From: Eledone cirrhosa
Taxonomy: Eukaryota
NCBI GenBank assembly: GCA_964016885.1
Contig: OZ024742.1
Span: 63,860,001-63,924,000 of the forward strand
DNA: 64,000 nucleotides
Reading direction: 5' to 3'
In this document: piece after piece, positions 12,001 through 62,223 of the stretch
Position numbering within the stretch: the first letter of the stretch is position 1
Layout: the number at the start of each line of letters is the position of its first letter
The notes under the pieces: generated by a model
Seen by the model: the letters and a program-made list of their open reading frames with translations, nothing else
Database searches by the model: none
Told to the model about the DNA's origin: nothing
Translations under genes and position numbers: made by a program

Positions 12001-12095
12001 AACTTCTGCAGATCTACACCAATCTAGACAACTGCACAAGTACTGCAGATCTACACCAATCTAGACAGTTGCACAAGTACTGTAGCTCTACAACA
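1..12095. repeat. 37-bp tandem satellite (consensus GCAGATCTACACCAATCTAGACAACTGCACAACTATT), ~325 units, runs off the window start
   Basis: Unit repeats head-to-tail with point variants and 1-bp deletions and no spacers. The 68-aa ORFs here are translations of the repeat (3 units = 37 codons). Confidence 0.98.
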
Positions 12096-12359
12096 ACAAA
12101 TATTTTAAAGTTAATTATTTATATGCCAAACTGTGTGAAATGGTCCGCTGTTTTACGGTACAAAACTGTATATTAATAATGGAGAAGTTAGTTATATTAC
12201 TAAATCCTATTAAAATATTAATTATTTTCAAAATTAATTAATATTCATAATCAGCGTCTTTCATTAGAAATATAGTAACGAAAGTGTAAATGTAGCCCTA
12301 ACCAAATCCGCTCTTTCTTTCCTTATCAATAACCCCAGAGGTACACATTTAGACACACT

Positions 12360-14231: not shown

Positions 14232-14280
<49 letters not shown>

Positions 14281-14411
14281 GATAAATCTACCAAAATATA
14301 CGGTAGTGTCCAATCCGTATGAAGAACTCAATGTAATCCAAATATCATGAAAAGAGAAGATGTATTCAAAATGTTTTCGATGAAAAACATAGGAAAACAG
14401 AGTCAAGATAA

Positions 14412-14785
14412 ATTAATAAAAATAATGAATAAAAGCAAAAAAACAGTTCCTTATATTAAAAAATTCATCATTTTACGATCGTTTCTAGGATATATATGTG
14501 TGCGTTGGTATATATATCATATAGATCTATGTAAAAATTTTACAAACTATCAGAGGGAATATACATACCTACACATATATATGCTGTCTTCAGAAATAAT
14601 TATTATTTCTGAAGACAGCATATATATGTGTAGGTATGTATATTCCCTCTGATAGTTTGTAAAATTTTTACATAGATCTATATGATATATATACCAACGC
14701 ACACATATATATCCTAGAAACGATCGTAAAATGATGAATTTTTTAATATAAGGAACTGTTTCTTTGTTTTTATTCATCATTTTTA

Positions 14786-14790
<5 letters not shown>
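14412..14790. repeat. Fold-back palindrome A (189-bp arms, 1-nt centre at 14601), Penelope-like terminal-repeat derivative, with a left-side tail 14278-14411; flanked by (TA)n
   Basis: Arms are reverse complements with a few distal mismatches; mirror ORFs 14347+ and 14550- are near-identical; hammerhead motif in each arm. Confidence 0.93.
14602..14735 (+). ncRNA. Type I hammerhead ribozyme motif with ~100-nt extended stem II (mirror copy on - strand, 14467-14600)
   Basis: Stem I ATTATTT/AAATGAT; CTGAAGA at 14609; stem II ATATATATGTGT/ACACATATATAT; GAAAC-GATC-GTA with palindromic loop III; predicted cleavage after 14728. Confidence 0.7.
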
Positions 14791-14819
<29 letters not shown>

Positions 14820-14827
<8 letters not shown>

Positions 14828-15216
14828 TAAGAGGAATTCCAACTTTGTCTGATTTACTCGTTTTATTTACAATCCTTTAAAATATATAATGGTATTATAA
14901 TGAAATAGTATGATAGAATATTAAATTCTAAGTGTTAATTGAACAAGTACTTTCATGCTTTCACAATCTTCAGGTTCATAGTATGTGGTGACAGTCAAGT
15001 TTGCAAGTTTCAACTGTGACAGTTGAAAATTGAAAACTTGACTGTCACCACATACTATGAACCTGAAGATTGCGAAAGCATGAAAGTACTTGTTCAATTA
15101 ACACTTAGAATTTAATATTCTATCATACTATTTCATTATAATACCATTATATATTTTAAAGGATTGTAAATAAAACGAGTAAATCAGACAAAGTTGGAAT
15201 TCCTCTTATTAATATA
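14820..15216. repeat. Fold-back palindrome B (~198-bp arms, centre 15018), abutting (TA)n, with a short right-side tail
   Basis: Arms are reverse complements with about 3 mismatches. Confidence 0.93.
15058..15096 (+). ncRNA. Minimal type I hammerhead ribozyme motif (mirror on - strand, 14940-14978)
   Basis: TGAAC-CTGAAGA-T TGC GAAA GCA T-GAAA-GTAC-TT-GTTCA: 5-bp stem I, GNRA-capped stem II, palindromic AAGTACTT stem III. Confidence 0.8.
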
Positions 15217-15756: not shown

Positions 15757-15867
15757 GGAAAAAAATGTATGACCCCGACGGCAGAGCTCAAGCCGTAACC
15801 ACTTATATATATATATATATATAAGTGGTTACGGCTTGAGCTCTGCCGTCGGGTCATACATTTTTTT

Positions 15868-15870
<3 letters not shown>
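15756..15870. repeat. Short fold-back palindrome C with (AT)9 at its centre; same family as 37662 and 54301
   Basis: AGGAAAAAAATGTATGACCCCGACGGCAGAGCTCAAGCCGT... and its reverse complement, one indel. Confidence 0.9.
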
Positions 15871-16419: not shown

Positions 16420-18590
16420 ATAAATAGTAAAAAGGAGAAAGGAAAAAAAATGTTCAGTAGAAAATGGTGGAGAGATTTTTCAGTATAATATCAAAACAAT
16501 TATTTATAAAGTGGGTATTTCCGCATTTGATAGTGGTACCGGTTTCAGCATTATATGCTTTTTCAACTGCGGATGTGCATAACGCAGTTAAGTTGCATAT
16601 TTATACGAATAATAAAAAGGGGAAGAAAAATTATTAGTTTTTACATACATATTTAGAGAGGAGAGTTCATATCTCTGTCCGTGGTTGTTCTTCGTTCTCT
16701 GTTAGTTGGCTAACAGTAGTAGTTTTAATTTTTTTGGTTCTGACTGCTGATTTTGACTGGTAGTATTGGAGGAGGAGAGGGAGAAGTGGTGAGGGGGCGG
16801 CGGAGATGGAGACAGGGGATAGGTGTGGTAGTAATCTGTTGTGGTTATAGACACTTTAAAAAATGGTAGGATTTGTTTGAATGGTTGAATGACCTTAGAG
16901 TTGACCGGGGAGGTAATTGTTTCTAAAAATATCTATCTTGGTATTCCTGTCTGAAAAACTGTCATTCTTAAATTGTTTTATCTTAGAAATAACCAACGTT
17001 GACTTTATAATTTTGCTACAAAAAAGATTCAGAATTACTGAAATACTAATTCGATCTTCAACACAAACTCCCAGATTCAGGGAAATGGAGAAAAAGGATT
17101 TCATCGATTCTATTACGGGAAAGCAACCAACCAACTATATTGTAGGCCCGTAAAGGAGGAAAAAGAAGGATGACATTGGTGGGATTCAAAGCTAAAACGT
17201 ACCGGGCCGTACATATTGTAAAACATTTACTTTGACACCTTAATGTTACTATTTATCCGATTATCTTCGTGAAAGTCCTCAAGAATCTTGGAGAATGATA
17301 CATTCCCAAAGGATTATTTTGTCTAGGGTGTTAATTTTAAAGTGTGCCAGCTGTAGTTTATTCCGAAGTGGATGCATTTAGAAGGGGTTTCGTATTTGGC
17401 GATAAATTATGATTCCTTGCTAATGCACTGGATGGGGGAAGCGTTGTCTTTAAACTTGTAGAGGGGGAACATTCTGAAATTGGCTTGTTCATTAGATGCG
17501 CAGGTCGCAATGTATTCACTCAGTGCTATCTTTCTGTATTCCGTATTTTAATTTGGGATCTATGGACGGTTATACGGTGAAGAAGGCTGTTTTAGTCTGT
17601 CCTATGTAGTGCTCTAGACAACCTGAGCAAGTCAACACATAAATCAGGTTTTCTGATGCGCATGTGAAATTGTATTTAACTGTAAAGTGTTGTCATTGTT
17701 TGAAGTGGAACTCCGATCCCTCTATTAGATTGGTACATATAACACAGGCAGGTCTTCCGCATTTTCTTACTGTAGGGTTCATTGTGAAGGTTGGCTGGAC
17801 TTTGGCCTGTGTAAGGATGTTTTTTATTGATTTGGGTTGTCTTTTGCTCTTTATAATGTTGTGTGTTTGAAGGATTTGATTCATCCTTATGTCTCTTTTT
17901 AGTAAAGGTGTGTTCTGGAGGATGGTGTCGAATTCCTCATTGTTATGGGGGTTGTATGTGGAGATATATGGTAGAATTTTCAGTTTCGATTCATTCTTTG
18001 GTTTGGGGTGTCTAACTAAGTTCCTGGATGTTGAGTTTTAGGGCACGTTGGAATCCATTGTTGATTAGGGATGGTGGGTAATTCCTGCTAATAAGTGTGT
18101 TCTTTAATTCTTCTAGTCGTATATAGCATGTGTATTTATCAGATACTATTTAGCAGATCCTTTTGGCTAGGTTGTAAGGAATTTTCATTTTGGTGTGTCT
18201 AGTGTGGCATGAGTTGAATGGAAGATACTGTTTGGAGTCTGTGGGCTTATAGTATATGTCTGTTTCTCGATAAGGATGTCGAGGAAAGGAAGCTGTTCAT
18301 GGCTGTATTCCATTGTAAATTGAATGTTTGTGTTGAGTCCATTTAGAAGTGTTTTAAATGCAATAAGCCTTTCTATACTTTCATGCCAGAGGATGAAACA
18401 ATCACCCAGACATCTCTTCCAGTTTTTTTCTGTATGGAGATAGAAGAGGTTTCCTTATTTATCTTGTACTTTTCGGTAGAGGGTGATTTCCAAGTACCCC
18501 ATAGCAAGGTTGGCGTAAGAGGGGTCCGTTTTCGTGTCCACGGCAGTGCCGGATTTCCGTCTGTAGAATTTGGCATCGAATTCTATCATG
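16420..18590 (-). mobile_element. Degenerate Penelope-like element (RT, thumb, Cys linker, GIY-YIG remnant, 3' region ending in (TA)n)
   Basis: Minus-strand frames give SGTAVDTKTDPSYANLAMGYLE, WKRCLGDCFILW, IQFTMEYSHEQLPFLDIL, YKPTDSKQYLPFNSCH, KCGRPACVIC and YIGQTK; frameshifted. Confidence 0.85.
16533..16570 (-). ncRNA. Hammerhead-like motif (U3:A8 core) near the 3' end of the Penelope-like element
   Basis: GCAG-TTGAAAA-AGCAT ata ATGCT-GAAAC-CG-GTA-CCAC on the minus strand; stem I imperfect. Confidence 0.55.
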
Positions 18591-19229
18591 TAATCAATGT
18601 TTCATTTCTGTTACACCTCATTTCTACCCCTCGCCCCTCTCTCTGTTTAGAATTAGAAGATTTCACCGTAACTAAGTCAAAGTTACAGGGAAATCTAATT
18701 CGATTGTCATACGTGCTTTTTATAGACAGATTTAATACTAAATTTATGAACAAGTCTGTCCGACCTGCCAACCTGTCACCATAATGGAGTTTATGTTATT
18801 TGTTTGTTGAGAGAGGTCAGACTTGGGTTCAGTAACCCATAGGGAAGACAGCCCGTCTAGAACAGTTACTTAGAACAAATAAAACTGTACAGTGTAGACT
18901 CGGACTCAATACGCCGATGGGAAGACAACCAGTCTATGAGAGTAGTCACTCCAAACAAATAAGAACACACGGAGTAGATACGACCAATCAGGTGAGCACG
19001 CAAACCAGGTTGTTTATTATAGCTCTGCAGACTGTAACATAAACGTTGATGACCTGGTTCTTATAGCTGAGGACGAGTGTGAGAAGAAATTCTTCCTATG
19101 AAAACAGAATTTAAAATAAAATCTAGCAAAGACACAAGTTTGGAAGAAGTATGAAAGTATGAAAGAAGACAAAACTCTGATTCGACTAGGGAAGTGGCCA
19201 TGCTCGATATATAGAACTCTACACGATGT

Positions 19230-19997: not shown

Positions 19998-20404
19998 GTG
20001 TAATAAAGGTAGATAGATAGACATACACACACACACATATATATCATATATATATATATATATATATATATGGAGAGAGAGAGAGAGAGAGAGAGAGGGG
20101 GGAGAGAGTGAGAGAGAGTGAGAGAGAGAGAAGAAAACCAAGGGACTGTTATATAACTGTTATATAAGAGGACTGTTATATAACTGTTATATAAGAGGTC
20201 TCGTTATTTGCAAGATGGCAACTAATAATCTAGCAACTATTAGCTTGGCTGAGATGTGCAAGAAAATTATTACATAAGAAAGTAAACATACACACATATA
20301 TATACACTCACATACACACAAATATACACACACCTACGCATATATAGACTACATTAGTGAGTAATTTTCCTCTCTTGTATGTACATTGAAACGTATAAAC
20401 GTAT

Positions 20405-21356: not shown

Positions 21357-24300
21357 TTATTCGATGCAAAACCTTTGGAATGTTTTACATATTTTTACTG
21401 TTCCATTAATGGATTGTACTAGTAATTTCCTAATTAGTTGTGTTCTTCCTGTTCCTGTGAAGCCTAGCTTCTCAAGATTTGTATTGAGGCAGTTACTAAC
21501 ATATCCCAGTGCCCCAATAATCACAGGCATAAATCAGATTTCTCATCAGTTCTGCATAAATATTCTCCTTTTCGCTGATCTTTGATATTATATTGGCATC
21601 TGCTGGGCAGCTAATTTCCACTACTGTGCATGCTTTCTTCTCCCTGTCCCATATAATATCTGGTCTGTTATGCCTGTATTTTATTGGGGTTTTTACTGGA
21701 ACATTCCACCAGTACTCTTTCATATTATGTACATGGATGTCTTCCACATTGCTGTAGCTTTTAATGTGTTTATTATCGGGGCTATATTTTTTACGGATTG
21801 CCTTGTACAGTGTTTTGGTCACTACATCATGCCTCATAGGTAGATAGTACCGCGATGACATCTTTGGACAGCTGCTGATGACATGGGTGATATCTTCGAT
21901 GTTAGTTCTGCAGAGTCTGCTCTTATTATCACATCTAGGTGTTTTGCCTGCATCCCTATCTCTTTTGTGAATCAGGTATTTCGTGTTAATTTCCTGTTCT
22001 TGGATTGCAAAAGCGTATCCTTCAAAGTGGGAGCCAATATAGCGGTTGTTGGTCCAAGATAGACTACTTTCCTTATCTATATTACTCTCACTCTGGAGCT
22101 TCTTGGCAACATATCGATGCATGATTTTTTGCTGATAAGCATACAGTTTTTCATCCATGGATTCACTGCGATACTGCTGAGCCCAGGGCGTGAGTTTTTG
22201 ATTATCACACGGAATATCTCTCGAGGAGTTCCTTCCCAACTCTAATGATCTTATCTGTTTCATGCAGATAGACTTGCTCGAGAGACGGGCTCCCACGCTT
22301 CGAGGTTCGTAGATGTTGTCGGAGGTATATGATGCGACATTCAAATGCTGTCTGGACTGATGTTAGGCCTCTGCCTCCCTGCTTACGTTTCAAGTAAAGG
22401 CAGTCTATGTCACTGTTGATGTGGAGGTTTCCGGTGTTGTTTAGTATTTTTCGAGTTCCAGCATCAACTGCTCGGATTTCGTCTATCGTCCAATTGAGTA
22501 TTCCAAACGTTGGTGTTAGGACAGGCACATCAAACACATTGTGAGCCACTGTTTTGGTTTGCGCAGAGAGTTCCGATGGCCAAATCTTTCTTAATCGGGT
22601 GTAGTATTCCCTGGTTACGCGTTCCTTATTACAAATACCATTATAGGATACTCATCTATCCCCAGGTATCTGTAGCAGTCTTCATCAGATATCGGTGAAA
22701 CAGTTAGGCCATTGAGGACAATGTTGCTAGATTGGGTTGTTGTTTTCCCCGCTTTACAGTCATATATGAGCATTTATCTTGGCCAAACTCCATTCCTATA
22801 TCCTTTGAGAACGTTGTAACCAAGTCAAGATTTTTCTTCATCCCATCCATGTTCTTGGCATAGAGTTTCAGATCATCCACAAAGAAATTATGGGTTAGGT
22901 TTGTATTTCTGTCCTTCTGTGAGCCAATGATATATCCTTCACATTTCTTGAGCAGAAAAGACAAGGGGTTTAATGACAAGATGAACAATATCACAGAGAG
23001 ACTGTCTCCCTGAAATATACCCCTGCGATATTTTATTTTATCAGTGAAAATAGAGTCCTCCCTCTCTGTCTTTAACCTTAGGATAGTAGCCCAAGAAGAA
23101 GACAGCCTCTCTATGGCTCTGACAATAATGTCTGGGACTTTAGCAAGTTGGAAGGCCTCTATCATCCAAGAGTGGGGAACAGAATCGAAAGCTTTCCTGT
23201 AGTCCAGCCAGACTGTAGCCATATTCCTCCTAAGTTGTCGCACCTCCGACATCGCAGTTTTGTTGATTAGGAGTTGTTCAGCACATCTCCAAACCCCTTT
23301 CTTTCCAGCTGCTTGTTCATCTGTGATGATGTTATTATTTTCACAGTGATCTTGGAGGAATAGGTTCAGGCAGTCTGTATAAATCTTATACATCAGGTTC
23401 TGGCATGCAATGGGTCGGTAGTTTTTTGCCAAGTGGGTGTCTTTGTTCTTGGGGACCAGTAATGTTTGTGCTAATGTCAACCATTCTGGTATAAATGTAT
23501 CTCCCTTAAGAACTTGTTGGTAAAGTCACTTATTTCGTATGTTTTTGCTGTAGTGTAGGAGCAATAGTTCTTTCGGATTTCTCTTAGCCACACTGCATCT
23601 TGGTTGAAATTCTTCTTTTCACCCCATATGTTGCACCAAAAGGAATCTATGTCTTTCTGGGATGGGGCCTCAATGACACTTATTATTTTGTTCTTCATAT
23701 CTCTATAGACTGATGTTTGGTTTCGTCTGAATCTTTTATTAAGCACTTTTCTCTCATCTACCTTCTTCGGGTATCGGCGTTTTTCGCTAACAGCTCTCAA
23801 TTCTTGTTTGAGGGTGATCAGCTTATATTGAAGAGTTCTGGTTCTACTGTTACCAAACATCGTCTCTATTTCATTTTTCACTCTCTGTTGGTGAGGAGTG
23901 AGGTTTTTTTGTGTTTGTTTGCATGTAAGGAGAATTGTCACATATCCTATGGTTTTTCGTAGGTCAGCAATCTTTTTTTCTATTTTAGTTATATATGATG
24001 GTATTTTTGGTGGTGTTTTATTCTTGTTAATATCTCTGCTATCACCAAGATAATGCTTCACTGTCATTGCTAGGGTATATAAACAGGCGTTGATTTGCCA
24101 AAATGTTGGGGTTTTTATCCGTCGTAAATATTCATCCCCTATTTCGTCAATAACACGTAATATTTCATTATTTGTTGTTTTTTTTATTAAATATTGTTGT
24201 TTTAATACGTTCAGCAAGAGAGATATTTATACATGAATTAATTTCTCTCTGGAAGATTTCGTTGAGGGAAATTTTAAATTGTTTATACTTTTGATTATTA

Positions 24301-24620
24301 TCATTATCGATAGTATTTTCCACAACAGTCGAAGTAGATGGTACACGTGGTGTCAAATTTCTTCGATTATTATTATTATTTCTTCGATTATTATTATTAT
24401 CGATAGTGTTTTCTCCAGCATTCGAGGTGGACTTAGATGGTACAGGTGGTGTCAAGTTTCTTACAGGCATAGTTGTTTCAAGGCGCTGTTCGACCTGGCT
24501 GCTAGGAAGTCTAGTAGCATGGCGACCTGTAGCATGTGTTGTTGATCCCATGTTTGTTGTGGGGGACTTACAATTAATAATATTTATCTTATTTTTACGT
24601 TCAACAAACGTCGTTTGTTG
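21357..24620 (-). mobile_element. Near full-length, frameshifted R4/Dong-like non-LTR retrotransposon (RT + zinc knuckle + restriction-like endonuclease)
   Basis: ORFs 23477-24217, 22704-23480 (NYRPIAC, LDYRKAFDSVPHSW, GIFQGDSLS, FVDDLKLY), 22205-22549 and 21496-22344 (RLC..EDITHVISSC, RHD, NRPDII, VEISCP). Confidence 0.9.
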
Positions 24621-25184
24621 GCGTAATTGTTTCGCTGTGAAATAATTTAGCTATGGGTGCATTTCGTCCCAGTGTAGCTTTATTCTGTTCATATAGCCAA
24701 TGCAGGGATTGTTTTTTGCCATTTTATAACAATTAAATAAATCATCATTAAGTTCGCAACTTCAAGAGAAATGCGATTTATAATTTCGGTTTCTTCTGTA
24801 GCTACAACCGAATAAAGTTTGTTTACCTTTCTTGTTGTTTGTCTTCGATACTTCCTTAACTTTGTTGTTGATGTTGTGTTCAGCCATGCTGTTTGTAGCA
24901 AATCCTTGTAAAATGAATTATGTATTTAGTCGGATATCTCTACGAATTCGAATAAAAGGTGTCTTCAGAAGATATAGTTAGAAGAATAACCAGTTATTCA
25001 ACATGACTGTAGTTGTGGCATCGCTGTCGGAGATAGTATTCATCTTAAATTTAATAAATCGTCTCCCACGCCAAAATATGCGATTGATCGCGTTGACTGT
25101 GTTAGATATGTATGGGCTTCTACAGGACTAGAACTGTTTCATTCAGTTCTAGTCCTGTAGAAGCCCATTTCTATTTGTTATGTA

Positions 25185-26414: not shown

Positions 26415-26467
<53 letters not shown>

Positions 26468-26469
26468 TT

Positions 26470-28711
26470 ACCTACTTACCTAAGGCTTTCTTCTCAATCC
26501 CATCTGGTCACAAGTACCATAGTCTTATAAATAAAAACACCATTAAAATCTCCTACTCTACCACACCTAACATAGCATACCATATAGCTAGTAGTAATAA
26601 ACTACAAACCCTAATAACAATAATAACTACAAACCCTAATAACAATAGTAATAATAGTAATAACACTAATGAAATCAATAACATTAGGAACGACAACCAT
26701 CATAGCCCTAATGCAATACCTAGCAACCAGACTTCTACACAACATAATAACCGACAAGATATCATCCAAAATAAATGTAACTGTAGATCAAATAGAACCT
26801 GCCCTTTAGGTAACAACTGCTTAATCAAGGACATCATTTACTCATGCACGGTCAACACTAACAACTCTTCTGAAACCTATATAGGCTCTACTTCGAACTG
26901 CTTCAATACGAGATACAACTTACACCTCCATTCTTTCAAAAAACACAATCTAGCCAACTCCACTTCACTATCTAGCTACATACAATATCTGAAAACTAGG
27001 AATAGATCATATACACTTCAATGGGAAGCGGTAGGTAGGGCTGCATCGTATAAACCACCTAATAAATTGCGTAACATCTGTCTATTAGAGACCCATACTA
27101 TAATCTTTTCGAATCTTAACCTCCTTAATAAAAAAAATCGGAAGTGTTTGCATCATGCCAACGCCGCTTCCGGCACTCTTTCCAAAACTTTAAACCTAGT
27201 ATATAACAATGTCAGATTTGAACCCATCACCACCATTAGCACTTCACCTCTAGGTCTTGCCTTCCACCACTACATCACACTCTCTGATCCACCCTCTACA
27301 TAAATCATTTTATCTATAACTTTATACTCTAGAAATATCCTTATAATCACCATCTTTTAATATAATTACTTTAGATTACTTATAATTATATAGTGATTGA
27401 AATATAATACAGTTTATATAAACTTTAAATATTAAATGTAACAATGAATTATATATATACATTTATAATTAAATGTATAAATTAATAACATTGTATATAT
27501 AGGATTAATTTATTAATATAAGGGATTTGTCTAACTTATATGTAACAATGAATTATATATACATTTATAATTAAATGGATGGATTAATAACATTGTATAT
27601 GGAGCATGAATTTATTTACTCAAGAGCTGTATCTAATTTATCATGCAAACAGCTGTACGTTATTCCATAGCTTACCAAATATTGGGTAGACAAAAATCTA
27701 ATTGGACCTTTAATATGTTTTGAGGGTAGACTGTATTTAAGGCTAATTTAATATAAATATATAGCACTTTGTATGGGAAATTCAATTGTGGCACTATATA
27801 ATATTGGGTAGACAACTTTCTATTGAAACCTTTAATATATTATGAGAGAGTAGACTGTATTTAAAATTAAATATAAATATATAACTTTTTATATAAGGGA
27901 CTCAATTGAGGCACCATATAATGTCTAGTAGAGCAATGAATTTAATTATTATAATGAGCTAGTTACCTCCCCTTACGTATTAGCTCCCCTCAATTACATA
28001 CCCGCTTCCGGATATTGAACCGCTGTAAATTCTCGCAGCTGAAAGACCCTAATCTATAATTATGAATTAAATAACACTAAGTTACAATACATTACAATCC
28101 ATTACTATAACAAACATTCAATACAAATATATCGTAACTTATGTGATGGATGTGAAAACTGTAACTTTCTTTTTCTGCACACATACAAATTTGAACTATA
28201 CAGAAAATATCCTCTCATTGCAACTACCATAATACACTAACATATTCGCTTAAAGTGCTTGTATTTCATGTAATACCTTGCCATACAGTACTCATATATA
28301 CATGATACATTTGCTTGTTCCATCCCTTTATATATGACTAACGCATATACTATCTCTTTAATTTAATTATTAGACTATTCTCTTGCATTATCTGTATTAT
28401 CTTTCACATGTATTCCAACCTATGCTTTTAATGTTGTTTTTAAATTTAATTTTGATTTTAATCTTAATTTGAATTATTGTACAAATATAGTATAATATAA
28501 TATATGTCGCATCAATTCCACACTGTAAACATGAAACTGTTGTCCACAACATCAATATATATATATATGTATCTGTATGTTTCTTCGGTTGAGTAGGAGG
28601 TCAATTATATGTACAAACATTAACATTTCTCCGAAGACTCCAAGCCTAGGTTTGGAAGAAACAACTGTCAGCGAATAAATGTTTTAAACATAACTTTGAT
28701 TCTTGTGAATT

Positions 28712-28713
<2 letters not shown>
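26470..28713 (+). mobile_element. 5'-truncated Penelope-like element: GIY-YIG endonuclease (~26770-27170) plus long 3' region, between (TA)n tracts
   Basis: CNCRSNRTCPLGNNCLIKDIIYSCTV...TYIGSTSNCFNTRYNLHLHSF...TSLSSYI...ICLLE...LLNKK; hammerhead motif near the 3' end. Confidence 0.85.
28626..28674 (+). ncRNA. Hammerhead-like motif (CCGAAGA core) in the Penelope-like 3' terminus
   Basis: CCGAAGA-c TCCAAGC ctag GTTTGGA a-GAAAC-AACT-GTC-AGCGA; homologous to 61577-61625. Confidence 0.6.
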
Positions 28714-28779
<66 letters not shown>

Positions 28780-29208
28780 TCATACACACACACATACACA
28801 CACGCGCTCACACACACACACGCACAGGCATATACACATAAATTAGAGATTGTCACATGCAATCTTGATTAGAAAAATAACTTTCCATTTGTTTGTTCAA
28901 TCATACATGCATAACCAATTGACTAATATGTGTGTGTATGATTGGTAATTACCATAACATGAATACAAACAGAATTTCTCCAAACCATTGCTATTCACAA
29001 GCTCGAGCTAATATTGTCCATACACGTAAACTCAACCTAGCCTAGTTGATACAGACCACACTAGACATATGTAATACTAATCCTGCCCTTCAGAACTATA
29101 CCCTAAACACTTACATCGTATCAACAACCAAACTTCACCAATTACTCGTATAAGGCAACGCGCTTCATCTTGCTGCAACCATCGTATTCTATACACATAT
29201 GTTATCTC

Positions 29209-31017
29209 TTTCTCTTAATTTAGAGTATATTTTTTTTGACCGGCCACCTTCCTAGTGGCAAGGTTGTAAAAGAAAAGAAATTGTCATCCCTTGAATCGCA
29301 AGAATCTTTTGCAAATGTTGAAGGTGCCAGCTATCGCAGCCATTTGTAGACTATGAATCAGGGAGCTGCGCTCTTTGTCCGCAAATCCAAGTTCAGTCAT
29401 ACTTTGGTCCAAGCGGGTTGGTATATAACCCGTAGCTCCAATAATGATGGGTATGAAGCTAAAGGTGTATCTTGGATACTGGATTTGTAAACTCCTCATC
29501 GATGGTCCGTAGATGTCCTCCTTCTCCTGTATTTTTCTGACAACGTTTACATCAAGTGGGCAGCAGATCTCCGCAACAGAACACGTTTTCAATGTGTGGT
29601 CGCAAACAACAATATCAGGCCGCTTGCGCAAACAACAATATCAGCCGTTTGTTGTTAATTTTGTTTTCCGAAGTGCGTTCCAGATGGTTCTAGCTATCCC
29701 ATCGTGTCTCATGGGGAGGTAGTAGCGAGATGACATTCTTTCGCAGCTGGCAACAATGTGGCTTACATCCTCGATCTTTGTTTTACATAGCCTACATTTA
29801 TTGTCAGCTGATGGCCCTCCTCTTTTGTGCAGCAGATATTTGGTAGGGAGTTCTTGTTCCTGTATTGCATAGAGATATCCTTCAAGGTGTGATGTCATAA
29901 ACTTGTCGGAACTCCTTGCCAGGCTTTTTGAGTGGTTTATCCCCTCTATGATCTGTGTTTTACGTCTCAAGTATCCATGCACAACTTTTTCTGTAAATTG
30001 GTCAATTTTTTCATCTTGTTTGAACATTGAATAGGATCTTCCGATTTCCCTGGGTGAGAGATTTATATCAAGCTTTATTCCATATCTCTCCTCCAGATCA
30101 GTGGCTATTCTAATGATTTTTTTTTTCATGCTCATAAACCTGGACAAGATGGTTGCCAACCTTTTTTCCTCTGTTGAAGATGTTGCTTCAGTGTTACTAT
30201 CCGGGTCTCATATGATGTTAATATGGATTTTAGACCCCGGCCACCTTCCTTGCGTAAGAAGTATAGCCTATCCACATCACCATTGATGTTAAAGTTGCCA
30301 GTAACACTGAGAAGTTTGCGAGTTCTAACATCCATCTCACTTAGTTCTTGCAGTGACCAGTTCAGCGGGCCAAATGTTGGCGTTAGAATTGGCACAGCAT
30401 ATTGTGGGAAATGTATTTGTTGTACGCTGACAGTTCTGATGACCATATTTTCTTTACTCTTCTGAGGTATTCAGTTCTGGTTCTCTCCTTATTTATGGGT
30501 CCATCATATCTGACATTCTCATCCTGTCCAAGATATCTGTAGTTGTCACCTGACTGTAGATGTATTGTCAGGCCGTTCATCTCTAGATTTCTAGAGGGGG
30601 GCACAGCTCTTCCACGTTTTACTGCCAAATATGCACACTTGGACTCATCAAATTTCATTTTGATGTCTGTTGAAAATTGTGTAATGAGGTCCAATTGTTT
30701 CTTGATGTCATTGATATTTGGCCCATACAACTTCAGGTCATCGACAAAGAAAAGATGGGAGATACTTCTGGACCCACTTCTTTGTCCACCTTGTTTCCTG
30801 AGTAGGTAAGATAGTGGATTTAGTGAGAGAACGAAGAGTAGCACTGACAAGCTATCACCCTGAAAGATGCCCTTCTGGTAATGTATCTTATCAGTCTTAA
30901 CTTGCTCCTTCTCACCTCTAAGGATCAAATTGGTGTACCAGTTCTTGGTCAGACGTTCAACAGCAGATACCAGTGGTTGTGGGACTTTGGCTAACTGTAA
31001 AGCCTTAACAATCCAGT
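29209..31017 (-). mobile_element. 5'-truncated R4/Dong-like LINE (second subfamily)
   Basis: GIFQGDSLS, FFVDDLKLY, CRLCKTKIEDVSHIVASC, RHD, RPDIVV and EICCP in frameshifted ORFs. Confidence 0.9.
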
Positions 31018-31094
31018 ATGTATGTATATATGTATGTATGTATGTATGTAAAGCCTTAACAATCCAGTATGTATGTATATATGTATGTATGTAT

Positions 31095-31870
31095 GTATAT
31101 ATGTATGTATGTAAAACGTAAAACAAACAAATCATTGAATATTGGCTGTTGGAATGCACGGACACTGCTTGACAGTGATTCCTCAGAACGTTCTGAACGA
31201 AGGACCGCTCTTGTTGCGAAGGAGCTTCATCGTTATGATCTTGACATCGTTGCTTTATCTGAGACGAGGTTAGCTGGAGATGGTCATCTTACGGAATATT
31301 GTGGAAAAAAAACATTCCTTCGGTAAGGGGGAGATGAAGGGCTTATAAGAGAGGCTGGAGTATCATTTGCTGTTAAGACTGCTCTTGTGGATAAATTGGA
31401 AGAATTCCCAGTGGAGATTAGTGAGCGTCTTATGTCCATGAGAATTCCGTTGGACAAAGGAAGGTATGCGGCCCTGGTGAGTGTTTATGCTCCAACTAAG
31501 AATTCTATTGATGAGGAAAAAGTATCTTTCGACCATGCTTTGAAAGGTGTTATAAGAAATATCCCTCAGGCAGATAAGGTTATCGTGCTGGGTGACTTTA
31601 ATGCTAGAGTGGGTAGGAATTTTAACACATGGACTGTAATCGGAAGGCATGGGAGTAGGAAAGTGTAACAGCAATGGTGTGCTTCTGCTGCAGATGTGTG
31701 AGGAGCTGGATCTGTGTGTTACCAAACCATGTTTCAGCAAAAGAATAAGTTTAAGACCTCATGGATGCACTCTGCATCTAAAGAATGGCATCCTTGTCAG
31801 GGTGTGTGACAGACGGGATGTGCATTTTTTGCGATGCATGGTATTACTGACCATAGGAAAGTCCCCAGCA
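31095..31870 (+). mobile_element. RTE (BovB-like) LINE apurinic endonuclease fragment
   Basis: LNIGCWNARTLLD...ERRTALVAKELHRYDLDIVALSETR; VSVYAPT; VLGDFNARVG. Confidence 0.88.
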
Positions 31871-33845: not shown

Positions 33846-34624
33846 AATGACTGGTCGATATAAAAGGGCAATCAACCCACATCAGTATCCTTCTCAAATT
33901 GAACCTGATAACATCAGTATAACACATTTTGCCTACAGACGTGTCATTTTAACAGAAAAAACAACAGTTGCATTTTTACTGGAAAACAATCTCTTGGATG
34001 CATCACAAAAATACAGCCCTCGAAAGGGGTGCCAAACTTCACGTTCTGTTCGGAAAGGAAACTCATTTTTCCAATACAAATACATCTACAACAAATTACA
34101 CTGCAGACGCAAGATTTGCTGGTCGACGGAAATACAATCGTGGGAGGATGCTAAATGGCGACAATGTTCCTCTCTCTGAAGATAGTGATGAAGATACACA
34201 AAACAACAAGAACCATGGACGTAAAGTTGATGGTCCTTGGGTCTTTGGTCTCAAACAAGGCTCTGAGTGTCGATACTTTTATGCGGAGCAGCGTGACAGA
34301 AACAATGTATTAACCATCATTGAGCAGGAATGTGAAAAAGGTTCAGTGATTCATTCGAATGAATGGCCTGCATATGGTAATCTAAATCGCCATTTTATTT
34401 TGAAACATCAAAAACATTATGTGGATCGAGTGAGAGGAACACACACTCAGGCTGTTGAACGATCATGGTTAGATTCCAAAACAAGAATTTTAAAGAAAAT
34501 GAGAGGCGTTAGTAGTGAGCATTTCCAGTCACACCTTGACCTCTTTTGTTGGAAAGTATTGAAACAAGATGCAACAGATTTGTCTCTGGCATTTTCAAAT
34601 GGTATACGAAGTATGTATCGTTAA
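33846..34624 (+). mobile_element. Merlin (IS1595/ISXO2-like) transposase pseudogene
   Basis: RRKYNRGR, GPWVFG, GSVIHSNEWPAY (catalytic D appears as N), H..YVD...GTHTQAVERSW; N-terminus frameshifted. Confidence 0.85.
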
Positions 34625-37661: not shown

Positions 37662-37848
37662 ATAGGAAAATGTATGACCCCGACGGCAGAGCTCCAGCCG
37701 TTTCGACGGCTATTTCAGTCCAGAAATAGCCGTCGAAACGGCTTGAGCTCTGCCGTCGAGGTCATACATTTTCCTATTACCCACTCTACTACCCTAAGTA
37801 TTGAGTACTCTGGTACGTTATGGTCCATCTGGTTCCTTACCACAACTC
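37662..37848. repeat. Fold-back element (55-bp arms 37662-37716/37723-37777) plus ~70-bp tail, in TA-rich microsatellite
   Basis: Arms are reverse complements; tail matches 54233-54300 in reverse. Confidence 0.88.
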
Positions 37849-40649: not shown

Positions 40650-41646
40650 CCTGTTAAGGCTTATAAGCACGAAGGAAATAATATCATTAGGGTAGCCACT
40701 GATCTGGAGGAGAGATATGGAATAAGGCCTGATATCTCTCTCCCAGGGACATTGGAAGATCGTATTCAGCAAGAAACTCAAACAAGATTTTAAAATGGAC
40801 CAATTTACAGAGAATTTTGTGCATGGTCGCTTGAGACGAAAAACACAGACTATAGAGGGGATAAATCATTCAAAAAGCAAGGCATGGAGTTCCGACAAGT
40901 TTATGACATCCCACCTTGAAGGATACCTTTATGCAATACAGGAACAAGAAATCCTTACCAAATACCTGCTACACAAAAGAGGAGGGCCATCACACGACAA
41001 TAAATGTAGGCTTTGTAAAACAAAGATCGAAGATGTTAGCCACATTGTTGCCGACTGCGAAAGAATGTCGTTTCGTTACTACCTCTCTATGAGACACGAT
41101 GTGATAGCGAGGGCCATCTGGAACGCACTTAGGAAAACAAGATTAAAAACAAATGAGGAGGAATATGTTGAGATAGATTGCACTAAAGAATACTGGTGGA
41201 ACCTGAAAATAAAAACTGCCACCAAATTAAAACACAACCGGCCTGATATTGTTGTTTGAGACCACACATTGAAAACGTGTTCTGTTGTGGAGATCAGCTG
41301 CCCACTTGATGTCAACGTTGTCAGAAAAATACAAGAGAAGGAGGACATCTACGGACCATTGATGAGGGGTTTGCAGATCCAATATCCAAGATACACCTTC
41401 AGCTTCATACCCATCATTATTGGAGCTACAGGTTATATACCAACCCGCTTGGACCAAAGTATGACTGAACTTAGATTTGTGGACAAAGAACGCAGCTCCC
41501 TAATTCATAGATTACAAATGGCTGCTATAGCTGGTACCTTCAACATTTTCAAAACATTCTTGCGATTCAAGGATGACAATTTCTTTTCTTTTTCAACCTT
41601 GCCACCAGGAAGGTGGCCGGTCAAAAATGTACTCTAAATTAAGAGC
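40650..41646 (+). mobile_element. R4/Dong-like LINE 3' fragment, same subfamily as 29209-31017, opposite orientation
   Basis: ORFs 40795 and 41269 are near-identical to 29641-/29284-; same 3' UTR ...CCGGTCAAAAA..ACTCTAAATTAAGAG. Confidence 0.9.
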
Positions 41647-41929
41647 AACAGAAACATACTTACATATTTTATTTTCTAAGCAGAATCGTGGGAGACATCG
41701 AAATTTACATTCTAACCCACCAGTATTGATTACTCAATCAGTTAAGTTTGAATATTTTAAATACTATGGTATTTTAAACACTATGTCCTTGTATGTGTAT
41801 ACACATACAAGGACATAGAGCATCGGAGAGAGTTGAGTTCACGACCTTACGAAGCTAAGCCTTAACCTGCATAACGATAGTTCTGTGAAAGCAGTGTCTG
41901 CCGTGGTGTCGCCACGACACAATAAGACG

Positions 41930-50658: not shown

Positions 50659-50888
50659 TCTCTCTCTCTCTCGCTTTCTTCTTCTATTTCTCTCTTTACT
50701 TATTTATCATTTGTCTGTCTATCTATCGATCATCCTACTTACCTATAATTCTTCGTACCTATGTATGTATTTCGATATGAATATATATATATATATATTT
50801 AAGAGTTAAACAAGGTTCAATGAATACATCAAAGAATGAGTTTTACAATAGATTGGAAGCACTCAACAGCTGGTTTTCCAGAGTTATT

Positions 50889-51159
50889 AATATTAATTCA
50901 AAATATTAACGAAATAGATATTCTTGTGATCAATTATATTTTATTATACACATTTCAGAGGTACTGAGTTAAGTTCAACAGTACGTCCTCATCAGATAAA
51001 ATAAAATGATACATGACATACCCTGACATGGTAGATGGTTAATGAGGACGTACTGATGAGGACGTACTGTTGAACTTAACTCAGTACCTCTGAAATATGT
51101 ATAATAAAATATAATTGATCACAAGAATATCTATTTTGTTAATATTTTGAATTAATATT
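50889..51159. repeat. Fold-back element G (107-bp arms, 57-nt spacer, left-side tail) between (TA)n tracts
   Basis: 50889-50995 is the reverse complement of 51053-51159 with about 2 mismatches. Confidence 0.9.
50938..51002 (-). ncRNA. Type I hammerhead motif (mirror at 51053-51110 lacks the 5' strand of stem I)
   Basis: ATTTTAT-CTGATGA-..GTACTG...CAGTAC..-GAAA-TGTGT-ATA-ATAAAAT; 7-bp stem I. Confidence 0.7.
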
Positions 51160-51536: not shown

Positions 51537-51586
<50 letters not shown>

Positions 51587-51879
51587 ATACTTTGGGAGAG
51601 TCATGTTGCCAATAAGAAACACACGCACCAGTTGCTTTCACTTCAATTTATTATAATAAATTTATAAATTGAGGAATTTATAAATTTCCGGTTGGTTGGT
51701 TAGGTCCACAACCGGATGATTGTTTATATATTATCAAAGTTCTTTCGTCACACATTCTGTGACCTCTTCAGTGACTGAGGATTCTTTTCTTTGTTTTTGT
51801 GCCTCTCCTTTGTTCTGTCCTACGCCATTTTGTTTCTGTGTGTGTGTTGTGTGTTCAGTCTGCGCATGCGCCACATCAT

Positions 51880-53749
51880 GGGCAGTGACGCTGTCACGGG
51901 ACCACCAACACGGCCAGTCTGTGGAGCTAACATTGCTAGTAACTACAGACTGTCCTACTTCCTCTCCCTGATCATACGCCCCATCATTGAAATGTCCCCA
52001 GATGTATGTGACAGCACGGAGGACCTCCTCAGCAGAATCGGCGAGAGTAACTGATCTAGGGACCTAACAAACTGCATAATAGGTAGTATGGATGTTGTGT
52101 CCCTGTATCCATCTATTGACGTGGATTTTGCTGTGGAGAAATGCGTAGAAATGATCAGTGAGAGCAATGTTGAGTTCCGTAGGATTGATACCAGTGAGCT
52201 GGGACTCCTACTTAAACTTACCTATAGTAATAATTACTTAGACACATATGACTTTAGCAACCTGTGCCCTACAAGACCAGCAAGAGGCAGACCACCTACC
52301 ATTACCTCAATGGCCAAGAAAACCCACACAGATAGATGGAACGGGTGGACCAGAGCCATACGGACACCCGAAAACCACGATGAACTAAAGAAAATTATTG
52401 CACATGCGGTGGGGGGGGGGGGGGCAGCATAAAATTAACCCTTAAGGAACATATGTTCAAATTTAATGAAAAAACATATGCCCAAGAGGAAGGAGCAGCC
52501 ATTGGTGTTAGCATTGCAGGCGACATAGCTAACTTATTAATCGTATGGTGGGACAGTAGACTTAAACTTAAACTTAAAGAACAATTAGAAGACCCCTGAT
52601 AATGTACTCCCGCTACGTTGATGATATAAACATCGTAGTTAAGACACCCACACTAGAGAACAGTCAGGAACTAGAGAAAAACACAATGGAGAGCATCCAG
52701 CAAATAGCTAACTCCATCCACCAGAGTATTAGAGTTACTATAGACTACCCAAGTAAACACCCCAACCATCGATTACCTGTACGAGACACAGAGCTCTGGT
52801 TAGATACGATTAATAACAAAAAACAAATCCTCCATTCCTATTATGCCAAACCCATGACTTCCAAATATCTGATCCACCGAAACTCAGCTGTTTCGGACCA
52901 TACCAAAATAAACATACTGATTGCGGATTTGGTACGGGTGATGAGAAACGTGTCCCGCATGTGCAACCCCGAAGAACTAGAGAGACACATACAACACTTC
53001 ATGCACCGTATGCAGTTCTCTGGTTACAATCAGAGAGATAAAATCAGAGTGTATAAAGGAGCCAGAACCAAATGGGAAAAAATGGTAAATAATGACACAA
53101 ATGGGACCTGCCCCTTGTATAGGAGCAAATTTTGGAATAGAATAGAAAGAACTAGGAATAAGGCTAATAGAATAAACTCATGGTATGATAGCAATAAATA
53201 CCAGAGTGTAATGTTCATCGATACAACCCCTAGAGGTGAATTAACTTACAAATTTAGAAGGGCCCTAGATAAACATAAACTCAATATTAAGATAGTAGAA
53301 AGACCAGGTACCTCCGTAAAAACACTTATTAGCAAGACATACCCTTTTCAAAGCGCCCCCCCCCCCGTATAGATAAGAAATGTATAACCTGTAAATTAAG
53401 CCCCCATATTAACTGTAAAACTAGAAATGTAGTATATAGCATAAGATGTACTGAAGGACAATGTAGAGACAAAAATATAGTGTACATAGGTGAGACAGCT
53501 CGTATTGTAGGGGAACGGATAAATGAACACTGGCGAGACCTTCAAGATAGTAAAGAATCATCTGTACTCTACCAACATGCTAAAATAGAACATAAGGGTA
53601 AATTAGAGAACATAGAAATAAAAATAGAATCTACACACAGAAAAGACGCAATGTTTAGACAAATCACAGAGGCAATAAACATAAAAGAATTACAACCAAA
53701 ATTAAATAGAAAACATGAGTGGAACAGCAACATCACAACTTACAATTAA
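51880..53749 (+). pseudogene. Penelope-like RT + GIY-YIG endonuclease, interrupted by stops and frameshifts
   Basis: TRPVCG, MDVVSLYPSID, QEEGAAIG, YSRYVDDI, YYAKPMTS, NVVYSIRC, YIGETAR..GERINEH, EAINIKELQPKLN. Confidence 0.92.
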
Positions 53750-53952
53750 GGACAAAATGAAAACACACACGCACATAGAACAAACAACCAACCTGTAACA
53801 TGTAAATAAACAAATAAATAAACGAATATAAACACACACAGACACCCGGATGTGGCGCATGCGCAGACTGAACACACAACACACACACACAGAAACAAAA
53901 TGGCGTAGGACAGAACAAAGGAGAGGCACAAAAACAAAGAAAAGTATCCCCA

Positions 53953-53995
53953 GTCACTGAAGAGGTCACAGAATGTGTGACGAAAGAACTTTGAC
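53953..53995 (+). ncRNA. Type I hammerhead motif in the 3' terminal repeat (mirror 51733-51775, - strand)
   Basis: GTCA-CTGAAGA-g GTCACA gaatg TGTGAC-GAAA-GAAC-TT-TGAC. Confidence 0.8.
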
Positions 53996-54232
53996 AATAT
54001 ATAAACAACCATCCGGTTATGGAACCAACCAACCAACCGGAAATTTATAAATTCCTCAATTTATAAATTTATTATAATAAATTGAATTGAAAGCAACTGG
54101 TGCGTGTGTTTCTTATTGGCAACATGACCCTCCCAAAGTATAACAATATCGGTTTCAACACACGTTTTCAGATAAAGAATCTTGCTAAACAAATTCAGAA
54201 ACGATATATATATATATATATAACGAAAAAAA

Positions 54233-54365
54233 GTGTGGTAAGGAACCAGGTGGACCATAACGCACCAGCGTACTCGATACTTAGGGTAGTAGAGTGGGTA
54301 ATAGGAAAAGAGTCAGGACCCCGACGGCTGGAGCTCAGCCATCGGGGTCCTGGTTCTTTTCCTAT
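54233..54365. repeat. Tail plus 30-bp-arm fold-back (54301-54365), family of 15756 and 37662
   Basis: ATAGGAAAAG...CCGACGGCTG gagct CAGCCATCGG...CTTTTCCTAT. Confidence 0.85.
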
Positions 54366-59355: not shown

Positions 59356-60177
59356 TAATGCCCCAATAAATAATGTTATCCATTTATCATTCATATTTGA
59401 ACACCATGTCCACCGAAACAATTCCCTTGGAAATGTGAACATGAGGATTTCTGGACAGACCCCATAACTGATTTCAAACTTATAGATTGCTCGGTGACAC
59501 TCCTCAGGGATGTCTTCGCGGATTTGTCCACATTTTCTGGCAATTTGTTAGTGATTGATCACCCAGAACTCTTACCATATTGAACCAACAATTGCCTGGC
59601 TTTGGGCGACATGTCACCCCGCAAAAACTGTTTAATCTTCGACTTTTGTCGAAGTCTGACGAAACATTTTGAGGATTTACTGGGATTCATATAAATTACA
59701 GAGCAGGAAAAATGATCAAATTCTTAATCTATCGTAAATCCCGCAGAGCGGCTCTAACACAACGTTTCAAAACTTCATATATTCAGTATATAGCAAGGAA
59801 ACTGTTTTAGACTTACTTAGTAGACTGGCTACCAATGATCATCAGCTATGCATACATTTCCATCGAAATACACCCAGTTTCTGTATATTTTAGTACCTGT
59901 CTAATTTATGTTTGTGTTTATATTTCTATATATTATCGTATATCAATCTAAATTCCTATTATAGTCTACTCCCGATAATTTGATGCTCAGTAGAGCTGCT
60001 TACATTGGTATATGAGTTGCGCTATGTTTAGCATTCCCGCCAAACCCGCTGCTACAATATTGTGACAGCTACTATGGCAACACCCTTGGAGTCCAGTATG
60101 TAGATAGCTGATATTTTGGGTGACTATTAGGACGGCCTACTGATGAAACAATTTGTCAGCATTTTCTATTCCGTTTA

Positions 60178-60220
<43 letters not shown>

Positions 60221-60224
<4 letters not shown>

Positions 60225-61664
60225 ATTACATGAATCAAAGTTCTGTTCAAACCATTTATTCGTTTACAATTGTTTCTTCCAAACCTAGGTTTGAAGTCTT
60301 CGGAGCAATTTTTCAATGATTGTTTACATACATGACCTCCTTTCCAACACAAGAGACATACAGAAACATATGTATATATTGATGCACAGTGGGTTGACAT
60401 CCATTATAATATTTTAGCATGGCAATTTACATTCAAAGATTAAAGTCATATTAAAAGAAAACAAAATTAAAGTTAAAATACAACATTGGCAGTTTACGAA
60501 GATAATGCAAGAGGATAGTTAGAAGTAGTTAGTGTATGCAATAGTTACACGTGGGGCATGCACGTGTGTCTTATTTATATAAGATTATAGTGCGGCAGGG
60601 TGTTATATGTAATACAAGCACTTTAAGCGGGAAATCAAGAGTACTATGGAGGTTGTATTGGTAAAGTATTTTTTTATATGTATGATATAGAAGCTTGTGT
60701 GCAGAGAAATATTAAACATATTAAAAATGAGGAGCAAAACAATGTTATGGTTTTCGTATACACCACCATTTTCACAATCCAGGAAACGTAATATATAGAT
60801 TATATGTCCTACACATAATCTACGATGATTCAATATTGGATGCTTGATGAATTAGGTTAGAATATTACAGCTTGTTGTTCTTTAATCCAATTTTATAGAG
60901 CAGGTTGTTTTTGTTGCGAGAATTAACATCGTATTATTTTCCGGAAAATAATACGATGTTAATTCTCGCAACAAAAACAACCTGCTCTATAAAATTGGAT
61001 TAAAGAACAACAAGCTGTAATATTCTAACCTAATTCATCAAGCATCCAATATTGAATCATCGTAGATTATGTGTAGGACATATAATCTATATATTACGTT
61101 TCCTGGATTGTGAAAATGGTGGTGTATACGAAAACCATAACATTGTTTTGCTCCTCATTTTTAATATGTTTAATATTTCTCTGCACACAAGCTTCTATAT
61201 CATACATATAAAAAAATACTTTACCAATACAACCTCCATAGTACTCTTGATTTCCCGCTTAAAGTGCTTGTATTACATATAACACCCTGCCGCACTATAA
61301 TCTTATATAAATAAGACACACGTGCATGCCCCACGTGTAACTATTGCATACACTAACTACTTCTAACTATCCTCTTGCATTATCTTCGTAAACTGCCAAT
61401 GTTGTATTTTAACTTTAATTTTGTTTTCTTTTAATATGACTTTAATCTTTGAATGTAAATTGCCATGCTAAAATATTATAATGGATGTCAACCCACTGTG
61501 CATCAATATATACATATGTTTCTGTATGTCTCTTGTGTTGGAAAGGAGGTCATGTATGTAAACAATCATTGAAAAATTGCTCCGAAGACTTCAAACCTAG
61601 GTTTGGAAGAAACAATTGTAAGCGAATAAATGGTTTAAACAGAACTTTGATTCATGTAATTTCT
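60221..61664. repeat. 1,444-bp zero-spacer palindrome F (722-bp arms, centre TTCC|GGAA at 60942/60943) with right-side tail 61665-61826, between (TA)n tracts
   Basis: Mirror ORF coordinates sum to 121885; only 2 mismatches seen, both distal; homologous to 28008-28713. Confidence 0.95.
61577..61625 (+). ncRNA. Hammerhead-like motif (CCGAAGA core; mirror 60260-60308, - strand)
   Basis: TTGCT-CCGAAGA-c TTCAAAC ctag GTTTGGA a-GAAAC-AATT-GTA-AGCGA; palindromic loop III. Confidence 0.7.
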
Positions 61665-61824
61665 ATATAACTGCTCTGTAGAACAACTGATGTTATTACA
61701 TTGAGCTATTTATCTTACTGGTAATAAGGTAGTCATAAATTACTGTCTTTCACTATTTAGGGTTTAAAATATATATAACTATAAAAGGTTTTAGTATATA
61801 CATAACCATAAATAGTATCCTTAA

Positions 61825-61879
<55 letters not shown>

Positions 61880-61882
<3 letters not shown>

Positions 61883-62223
61883 TGTACCCCCGGCATTCAC
61901 GGGCCCGGTTATTCGCGGAATTTTTCTAAGCACCTAACTAACAAGTGTTCGTGGAAACCACCACATATTCACGGAATCGTAAATAACTTCCGTGATTTTT
62001 TATGGCTTTTTCGTGGCATTATATATTTTTTCGCGCTTTTTAACGCTAAATTATTAATAACAAAATACCGTGTTTGCCGGCCTATATTTTACGTTATGTT
62101 TTGTCGTTTATAGGCATTTTTATGAACCACGTCCAATATTCGCGGTTTTTAATCTTCGTGGATGCTCTAGGAATAGGAACGTAAACCCCCCCCCCCCCCC
62201 CCGCGAATACCAGTGGACAATTG
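61880..62223. mobile_element. Tigger/pogo-like MITE
   Basis: ta|CAGTGTACCCCCGGCATTCACGG...CCGCGAATACCAGTGGACAATTG|ta: imperfect TIRs, TA flanks, repeated TTCGCGG motifs. Confidence 0.6.

Follow-up and report, generated by a model that had tools for sequence, protein, structure and literature searches.

Inverted insertions have been described in several groups of Penelope-like retrotransposons (PLEs). As far as the available parts of the published reports go, the Hydra clade is defined by a CxCX5C motif, the lack of CCHH, a hammerhead and (TA)n targeting, further traits being RWK and DKT in the RT, and CxxC and CxH near the conserved E and N of the endonuclease; an inverted 5′-truncated copy with a one-sided tail of 30-40 nt is stated to be the typical PLE arrangement, and Penelope-13_HM, in which each strand carries a hammerhead, contains a 966-nt inverted 5′-truncated copy (Craig et al. 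2021, PMC8557442, File S1). Palindromic head-to-head junctions are abundant in Penelope of the rotifer Adineta vaga, in which inverted pLTRs of 180-220 bp usually enclose the ORF, the junction palindromes are 18-38 bp, the tail stands on one side, and the structure was read as self-priming (Arkhipova et al. 2013, PMC3846280). In vitro, the purified Poseidon protein PAc cuts and extends both target strands, and two RT start sites, with a stem-loop at the start region, delimit a tail of 30-40 nt (Frangieh et al. 2024, PMC11167929). In Schistosoma, minimal hammerheads from truncated PLEs form opposite-strand pairs 100-700 bp apart (Cervera and De la Pena 2014, PMC4209133). How PLEs build inverted and tandem structures, and what the hammerhead does, are named as open questions (PMC8557442, PMC11167929).

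The locus described here lies in the window, which is the whole 64,000-nt stretch of DNA analysed, and its features are listed in Table 1. A preliminary description had claimed a 1.44-kb zero-spacer palindrome that is a doubled PLE 3′ end, and this was confirmed. Two arms of 722 bp met at 60942|60943 with a spacer of 0. Complementarity was unbroken for 679 pairs from the centre, and the arms differed at two positions only, 680 (60263T/61622G) and 695 (60248C/61637A). The junction base at position 723 was mismatched (60220C/61665A) and pairing was lost after position 727. The insertion was longer than the palindrome, with a 163-nt tail on one side that reached the second (TA)n run at 61828. No homology was found between the left flank and the relative described below, the tail or the right flank; against the reverse-complemented tail and right flank it scored 38 and 28, which is background. 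The longest stop-free frame of the right arm was 82 aa, and tblastn with 150 Hydra-type proteins gave no match to it. The arm is 3′ UTR/pLTR without coding remnant; the palindrome copy encodes no protein and is most likely inert. The identity of the locus as a PLE inverted insertion can be stated with high confidence.

Table 1 Coordinates of the palindrome locus, its unfolded relative and the other inverted insertions of the window
Feature	Position	Strand	Basis or remark
(TA)19 microsatellite, left target half	60182..60219	.	TA-run list
Left arm: inverted, tail-less copy of PLE 3′ UTR/pLTR	60221..60942	-	self-comparison, alignment with relative
Mirror hammerhead motif	60260..60308	-	60263 substitution breaks one stem I pair
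TTCCGGAA dyad at fold	60939..60946	.	upstream half present in unfolded relative, 28006-28009
Right arm: forward 5′-truncated copy of PLE 3′ UTR/pLTR	60943..61664	+	alignment with relative
Type I hammerhead-like motif, Hydra layout, U4C core CCGAAGA, palindromic stem III	61577..61625	+	pattern scan; predicted cut 61620|61621
One-sided tail	61665..61827	+	putative 5′ start of next tandem unit; distal part putative element or host flank
Bulged hairpin opening tail: RCTC / stem / 2-nt bulge / GAGY	61673..61706	+	common to other window tails and published Hydra consensi
(TA)26 microsatellite, right target half	61828..61879	.	TA-run list
Unfolded relative: 5′-truncated Hydra-type PLE between (TA)n runs, without inverted copy, without tail	26467..28713	+	
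Remnant ORF of relative: linker, Asn-rich insert, CxCX5C, GIY-YIG endonuclease	26467..27303	+	
Hammerhead-like motif of relative, same U4C core	28626..28674	+	predicted cut after 28669
Inverted insertion	14414-14788 (14277-14788 with tail)		arms ~189 bp, 1-nt spacer, near-perfect
Inverted insertion	14825-15211 (region to 15270)		arms ~194 bp, 1-nt spacer, near-perfect
Inverted insertion	15757-15869		folded around (TA)10 centre; 10 nt also found nearby at 15636
Inverted insertion	37662-37777 (to 37850)		fold probably in stem II
Inverted insertion	50889-51159 (50798-51159 with tail)		quasi-palindrome, canonical CTGATGA hammerhead core, ~50-nt spacer with short duplication, 91-nt one-sided tail
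Inverted insertion, PLE of another type, decayed	51583-54145 (to 54204)		297-bp inverted pLTRs, 96%, enclose RT-EN remnant
Inverted insertion	54301-54365 (from 54223)		fold in stem III

The right arm aligned over its full length to 28006-28712, the last 707 nt of an unfolded PLE elsewhere in the window (the relative), and 481 of 632 ungapped columns (76%) were identical. The score was 364, compared with 37±5 and a maximum of 53 in 200 dinucleotide shuffles, and when the conserved 3′ ~150 nt were left out, the middle part by itself still scored 189 (38±6 in shuffles). The earlier claim that the right arm is collinear with the last ~700 bp of a GIY-YIG element was thus upheld: every sequence block named as shared fell inside the alignment, and the pairwise comparison with 28000-28713, suggested at that time as a check, was significant (364 vs 37±5). 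The relative was rejected as an old palindrome about 28009 (score 62 vs 46±6, maximum 63).

The relative lies between TA runs at 26415-26466 and 28715-28766, so that insertion into (TA)n was found at both loci. A full HMMER search of 1.84 billion protein representatives with its ORF gave 3454 matches at E≤0.001 and 931 at E≤1e-10. The longest among the 150 matches listed was P0020 (696 aa), an RT that carries its endonuclease at the C-terminus and contains RLRW and DKT motifs. To the C-terminus of P0020 the ORF was 40% identical over 133 aa (E 1e-28); the relative itself is truncated within the linker region, and RLRW and DKT are visible only in this homolog. The CxCX5C motif was present as CNCRSNRTC. 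CCHH was absent, as the alignment with P0020 displayed a single Cys between the GIY and YIG equivalents, while CxH was present (KCLH) and the first Cys of CxxC was missing in the decayed copy. The endonuclease matched Pfam PF01541 (GIY-YIG) weakly, at an E of 0.013 that lies below the cut-off, and a word-indexed protein search with the endonuclease region gave nothing at E≤0.001 among 92 candidates. On these motifs the relative is a Hydra-clade PLE, like Penelope-13_HM and Hydra-1_Obim in its (TA)n target, C-terminal GIY-YIG, CxCX5C and lack of CCHH (PMC8557442), and the palindrome, which has no ORF, is assigned through the 76% DNA homology. The 3′ UTR of the relative, ~1.4-1.5 kb, was longer than those of the six new Hydra consensi published in the available part of that work, and contained two internal tandem duplications, at 27432-27641 (~105 bp) and 27678-27922 (~122 bp). 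The Asn-rich low-complexity insert in the ORF linker (26600-26780) recalls the N-rich inserts of rotifer Penelope (PMC3846280).

In structure, the palindrome matched the published inverted insertion form of PLEs. It differed from the Hydra-clade elements described in PMC8557442 in that no ORF lies between the arms and the one-sided extension, of which the first 42 nt carry a hairpin shared by the family, runs 163 nt to the next TA run, compared with a tail of 30-40 bp. No target-site duplication was discernible within the TA microsatellite. Like Adineta vaga Penelope it has head-to-head inverted pLTRs, a junction palindrome and a tail on one side, whereas here the palindrome comprises the whole 722-bp arm pair (PMC3846280). 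Poseidon PAc shares the use of two strands and two start sites but belongs to another clade, and inverted products are not modelled in the available part of that report (PMC11167929). Compared with the pairs of Schistosoma (PMC4209133), the two hammerhead motifs here are ~1.27 kb apart inside a near-perfect palindrome. The palindrome is a known PLE insertion form, in an unusually long and clean example.

Hammerhead-like motifs were located near the outer end of each arm. A pattern scan of 12.1-64 kb returned four matches, one of them at 61577-61625, and missed the left arm and the relative, in both of which stem I is imperfect. All three stems were present in the right-arm motif, stem III being an 8-nt palindrome, and its layout agreed by eye with the Hydra hammerheads of File S2 (PMC8557442), including the place near the 3′ end and the extra base before stem II and before GAA. 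Differently from this motif, none of the hammerheads in the available part of File S2 has the U4C core, and that of Hydra-1_Obim from Octopus bimaculoides differs in sequence, which places it in a different family. By its repeats, the host of the palindrome may be octopus-like. U4C is a known natural variant with reduced or low activity in vitro (PMC3088659). The core CCGAAGA was found in both arms and in the relative, so that the variant is older than their split. The motif was not the predicted minimum-energy fold (z -0.42). Rfam gave no hammerhead among the matches listed for 12000-64000 (150 of 184) and none among the four for 61450-61830; miRNA matches at the palindrome centre were below gathering scores and were rejected as reflecting the hairpin only. 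The tail-less left arm and the stand-alone relative ended at the same site, 44 nt beyond the predicted cut, which makes this a fixed end site of the lineage. A non-LTR retrozyme, defined as head-to-tail tandem units with a type I hammerhead each (bioRxiv 10.64898/2026.07.22.740005), was rejected, as the copies here stand head to head.

The preliminary description placed the fold at a TCCGGA dyad also present in the unfolded relative at ~28007, and read this as consistent with snap-back priming. The pre-existing dyad was borne out. The relative carries TCCGGA at 28007-28012, in register with the palindrome centre, and the register was set by the downstream sequence alone, with 53 of 76 identities at shift 0 and 17-28 at 12 other shifts. 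The four upstream bases of the relative complement the first four of the arm, after which the match stops; an equally good upstream match occurred at 8 of 626 aligned positions (1.3%), seven of which were A/T-only or nearly so. In the template, TTCCGGAA was thus most likely present before folding took place, the unfolded sequence being read from a relative that is 24% diverged and is not the true donor. The 8-nt dyad would form a stable intermolecular duplex (-9.4 kcal/mol) but would be unstable as an intramolecular hairpin (+2.1 kcal/mol). The fold also bypassed a better native hairpin, the centre of which lies ~4 nt upstream in the relative. A 10-mer, CCGCTTCCGG, occurred at 27164 and 28002 of the relative and nowhere else in the window, its second copy overlapping the fold site. 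We take it to resemble an ETS-type promoter motif, and the fold may thus lie near an internal transcription start.

Seven further inverted insertions in or beside TA runs were found by masked self-BLAST and inspection, giving eight in 52 kb; this count leaves out small inverted repeats at 20146, 25112 and 41781, which were also looked at. The surprise first attached to the palindrome was overrated, since PLE head-to-head copies, palindromic junctions and one-sided tails are published (PMC3846280, PMC8557442) and seven more lay in the same window. The palindromes at 14414 and 14825 were adjacent, in TA runs, and each had hammerhead-like motifs on both strands; in the former, stem II was very long, and the bulged hairpin was present in a one-sided tail of 137 nt. 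The insertions at 15757, 37662 and 54301 belong to one short family with half a hammerhead each and three different fold centres, which indicated that the inversion was made anew at each insertion. Those at 37662 and 54301 had a common tail (89% identity), which proves that this tail is element sequence. The decayed PLE at 51583, presumably Neptune-like by its motifs, had a 59-nt one-sided tail, and its junction showed 3-4 nt of microhomology beside a 10-bp dyad. Most of the inverted insertions had a one-sided extension; 15757 had none, and a two-sided tail was found in 0 of 8.

These features bear on two origins other than retrotransposition. Long terminal inverted repeats with TA on both sides would suit a foldback or MITE-type DNA transposon, or a non-autonomous family whose palindrome is fixed and is mobilised whole, with TA as target duplication, and palindromic families do exist, as in frog Harbinger (PMC5625713). 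The asymmetric tail, the hammerhead motif, the homology to a retroelement 3′ UTR and the different fold point in each copy of the short family make such an origin extremely unlikely. Inverted duplication after insertion, by host replication or repair through fold-back at a break or origin-dependent inverted-repeat amplification, is known to begin at short inverted repeats. Here, however, the duplicate ended at an element-internal site common to the relative, without host DNA, and the structure recurred only at PLE ends in TA runs; we regard the probability of this origin as next to negligible.

We lean towards a single Hydra-type PLE insertion in (TA)n, in which two 5′-truncated 3′ ends were placed head to head by two cDNAs annealing at TTCCGGAA. 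The RT/GIY-YIG protein would nick both (TA)n strands, and one strand would prime at a distal start site (the tail end), the other at a proximal site (the pLTR end). The two cDNAs would have the same polarity, and their 3′ ends could pair only at an inverted microhomology, where a dyad would yield a palindrome of zero spacer and one-sided tail; fill-in and ligation would complete the insertion. L1 twin priming is alike in that a nick in the second strand primes a second cDNA that is joined by microhomology, but L1 inversions are not known to duplicate the 3′ end.

Snap-back would give the same end product in sequence. One cDNA, started from the tail end, would stop at the dyad, copy itself to the TATA of the pLTR end and join the other target half by TA microhomology; in a variant proposed for rotifer Penelope, self-priming takes place on antisense RNA (Arkhipova 2013, PMC3846280). 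The absence of mismatches across the inner 679 bp favours this course, as identical templates come free with snap-back and are needed for two cDNAs, and a native TATATA at the arm end is able to pair with the target. Junctions at 54301, probably 37662, and 14825 lie at native hairpins, self-priming has been inferred from PLE junction palindromes (PMC3846280), and RTs can extend unstable hairpins. In R2, the 3′ end of the cDNA self-primes before joining and snap-back junctions are documented, although full-arm palindromes are not described in the available part of that paper (PMC11371274). On the other hand, the dyad hairpin is unstable, and self-copying through the tail might sometimes be expected, whereas none of the eight insertions had two tails. 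At 54301 the junction loop followed the orientation of the tail-less arm (2-3 vs 7-8 mismatches of 20), which is not what snap-back of a tailed cDNA would give, an argument drawn from a single old insertion, which belongs to another family and has arms that are 88% identical. Two-cDNA joining fitted somewhat better on account of the stable duplex and unstable hairpin, the better upstream hairpin left unused, the 54301 loop and the lack of any two-tailed insertion. Hence, while the dyad of the preliminary description stood, snap-back as the mechanism was not established, and we hold it as a possible but less probable course.

The positions of the arm mismatches were also considered. Both lay within the last 43 nt of the arm (P 0.0035 if uniform), the first of them 2 nt past the predicted ribozyme cut, and both were derived in the left arm as judged against the relative. 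In the palindrome at 14414, all three mismatches were confined to the outermost 29 nt of the 189-nt arm (P 0.0036), beyond its hammerhead. When five palindromes were pooled, 8 of 12 mismatches fell in the distal 45 nt (4.0 expected, P 0.008; this 45-nt window was chosen post hoc). Relative to the ribozyme cut, 7 of 12 were downstream (4.7 expected), which was not significant (P 0.13); without the two mismatches less than 20 nt from a centre the figure was 7 of 10 (P 0.06). This pooled test excluded 15757, 54301 and 51583, and the palindrome at 14825 ran contrary to the pattern with 0 of 3 downstream. Uniform mutation of identical arms, as left by snap-back, misfits the distal clustering here and at 14414 unless later arm-to-arm conversion is added, by which the snap-back reading would explain it. 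Arm-to-arm conversion is known from Y-chromosome palindromes. Conversion, polishing, or two templates differing past the cut could each produce such a distribution.

If the last of these holds, the palindromes preserve intermediates of double priming, in which two different templates are recorded. The tailed cDNA would start where a clade-wide bulged hairpin places the RT/endonuclease, copy the upstream pLTR to the hammerhead cut, and then cross to the downstream pLTR by a template jump or on a circular RNA; the tail-less cDNA would have the downstream pLTR as its only template. On this account the arms would agree as far as the ribozyme site, with differences only past that point, as here and at 14414. 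We consider this account rather doubtful; if true, it would be genomic evidence for PLE hammerheads acting in the transposition cycle in vivo.

A sequencing or assembly artefact was also considered, be it a chimeric read that folds back, the collapse of a spacer, or homogenisation of the inner arms during polishing. Mis-mapped polishing reads could leave arms that are perfectly identical inside and differ only close to the unique flanks, and assemblies are known to have trouble with tandem and inverted PLE structures (PMC8557442). However, the inversion ended exactly at the biological end site of the element, neither tail nor flanks were duplicated (scores 38 and 28), the centre lay on a dyad present in a separate relative, and seven other insertions, including older ones with diverged arms, had the same layout. 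An artefact is very unlikely on this evidence, in agreement with the preliminary description, which had argued against one.

The tail was compared with other tails and with published elements. Its opening hairpin pattern was present in four of seven tails (the main one, 14414, 37662 and 54301), 5-10 nt from the arm end; the strict motif was absent from 50889, which had a near-match, and from 14825 and 51583. A scan of the whole window gave six matches, compared with 1.0±0.8 in 40 shuffles, and four of the six were at tail starts. The motif was defined after the main tail had been seen, so the match there is circular, and two of the other three belong to one family. The tail hairpins were not individually strong folds (z -2.11, -1.11, 0.09 and -0.44). 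Among the six Hydra consensi of File S7 (PMC8557442), the hairpin was recognised by eye in three, Hydra-2_Amil, Hydra-1_Ajap (at the 5′ start) and Hydra-2_Ajap; Crog nearly matched, and Amil-1 and Obim did not. On this distribution, the initial 42 nt of the tail, at a minimum, probably correspond to the 5′ start of the next tandem unit. Local alignment found no meaningful homolog of the main tail elsewhere in the window, and the main and 14414 tails did not align past the hairpin. Neither the bulged tail hairpin nor the confinement of mismatches to the last 43 nt was found described in the openly accessible literature searched. If it holds up, the hairpin would be a candidate for a cis-acting signal used by Hydra-clade proteins.

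With eight inverted insertions in 52 kb, the genome offers many natural junctions for telling two-cDNA priming from snap-back. If transcribed, the palindrome would form a 722-bp dsRNA; siRNAs arise from Penelope inverted repeats in Drosophila (PMC3681739), and near-perfect dsRNA correlates with hyper-editing (PMC5625713).

Further repeats were observed in the window. In the left flank (60100-60181), CTGATGA followed by a stem III-like stretch stood immediately before the TA run and may be what decay has left of the 3′ end of an older PLE, which would mean serial insertion at one microsatellite. On the other side, a GC-richer element (61880-62220) that begins with CAGTG directly after the TA run resembled a small TA-targeting DNA transposon. 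Another decayed PLE-like RT and GIY-YIG remnant with an internal CxxC was located on the minus strand at ~16900-18800; self-BLAST detected no inverted copy, and the piece tested had no Pfam match. Decayed non-LTR retrotransposons (RVT_1, E 3e-24 and 1e-10) and an ISXO2-like transposase remnant (E 3e-11) were found among 21500-24650, 29200-31300, 40680-41660 and 33953-34624. Positions 1-12096 were occupied by a 12-kb array of a 37-bp satellite, with ~91% identity between offsets.
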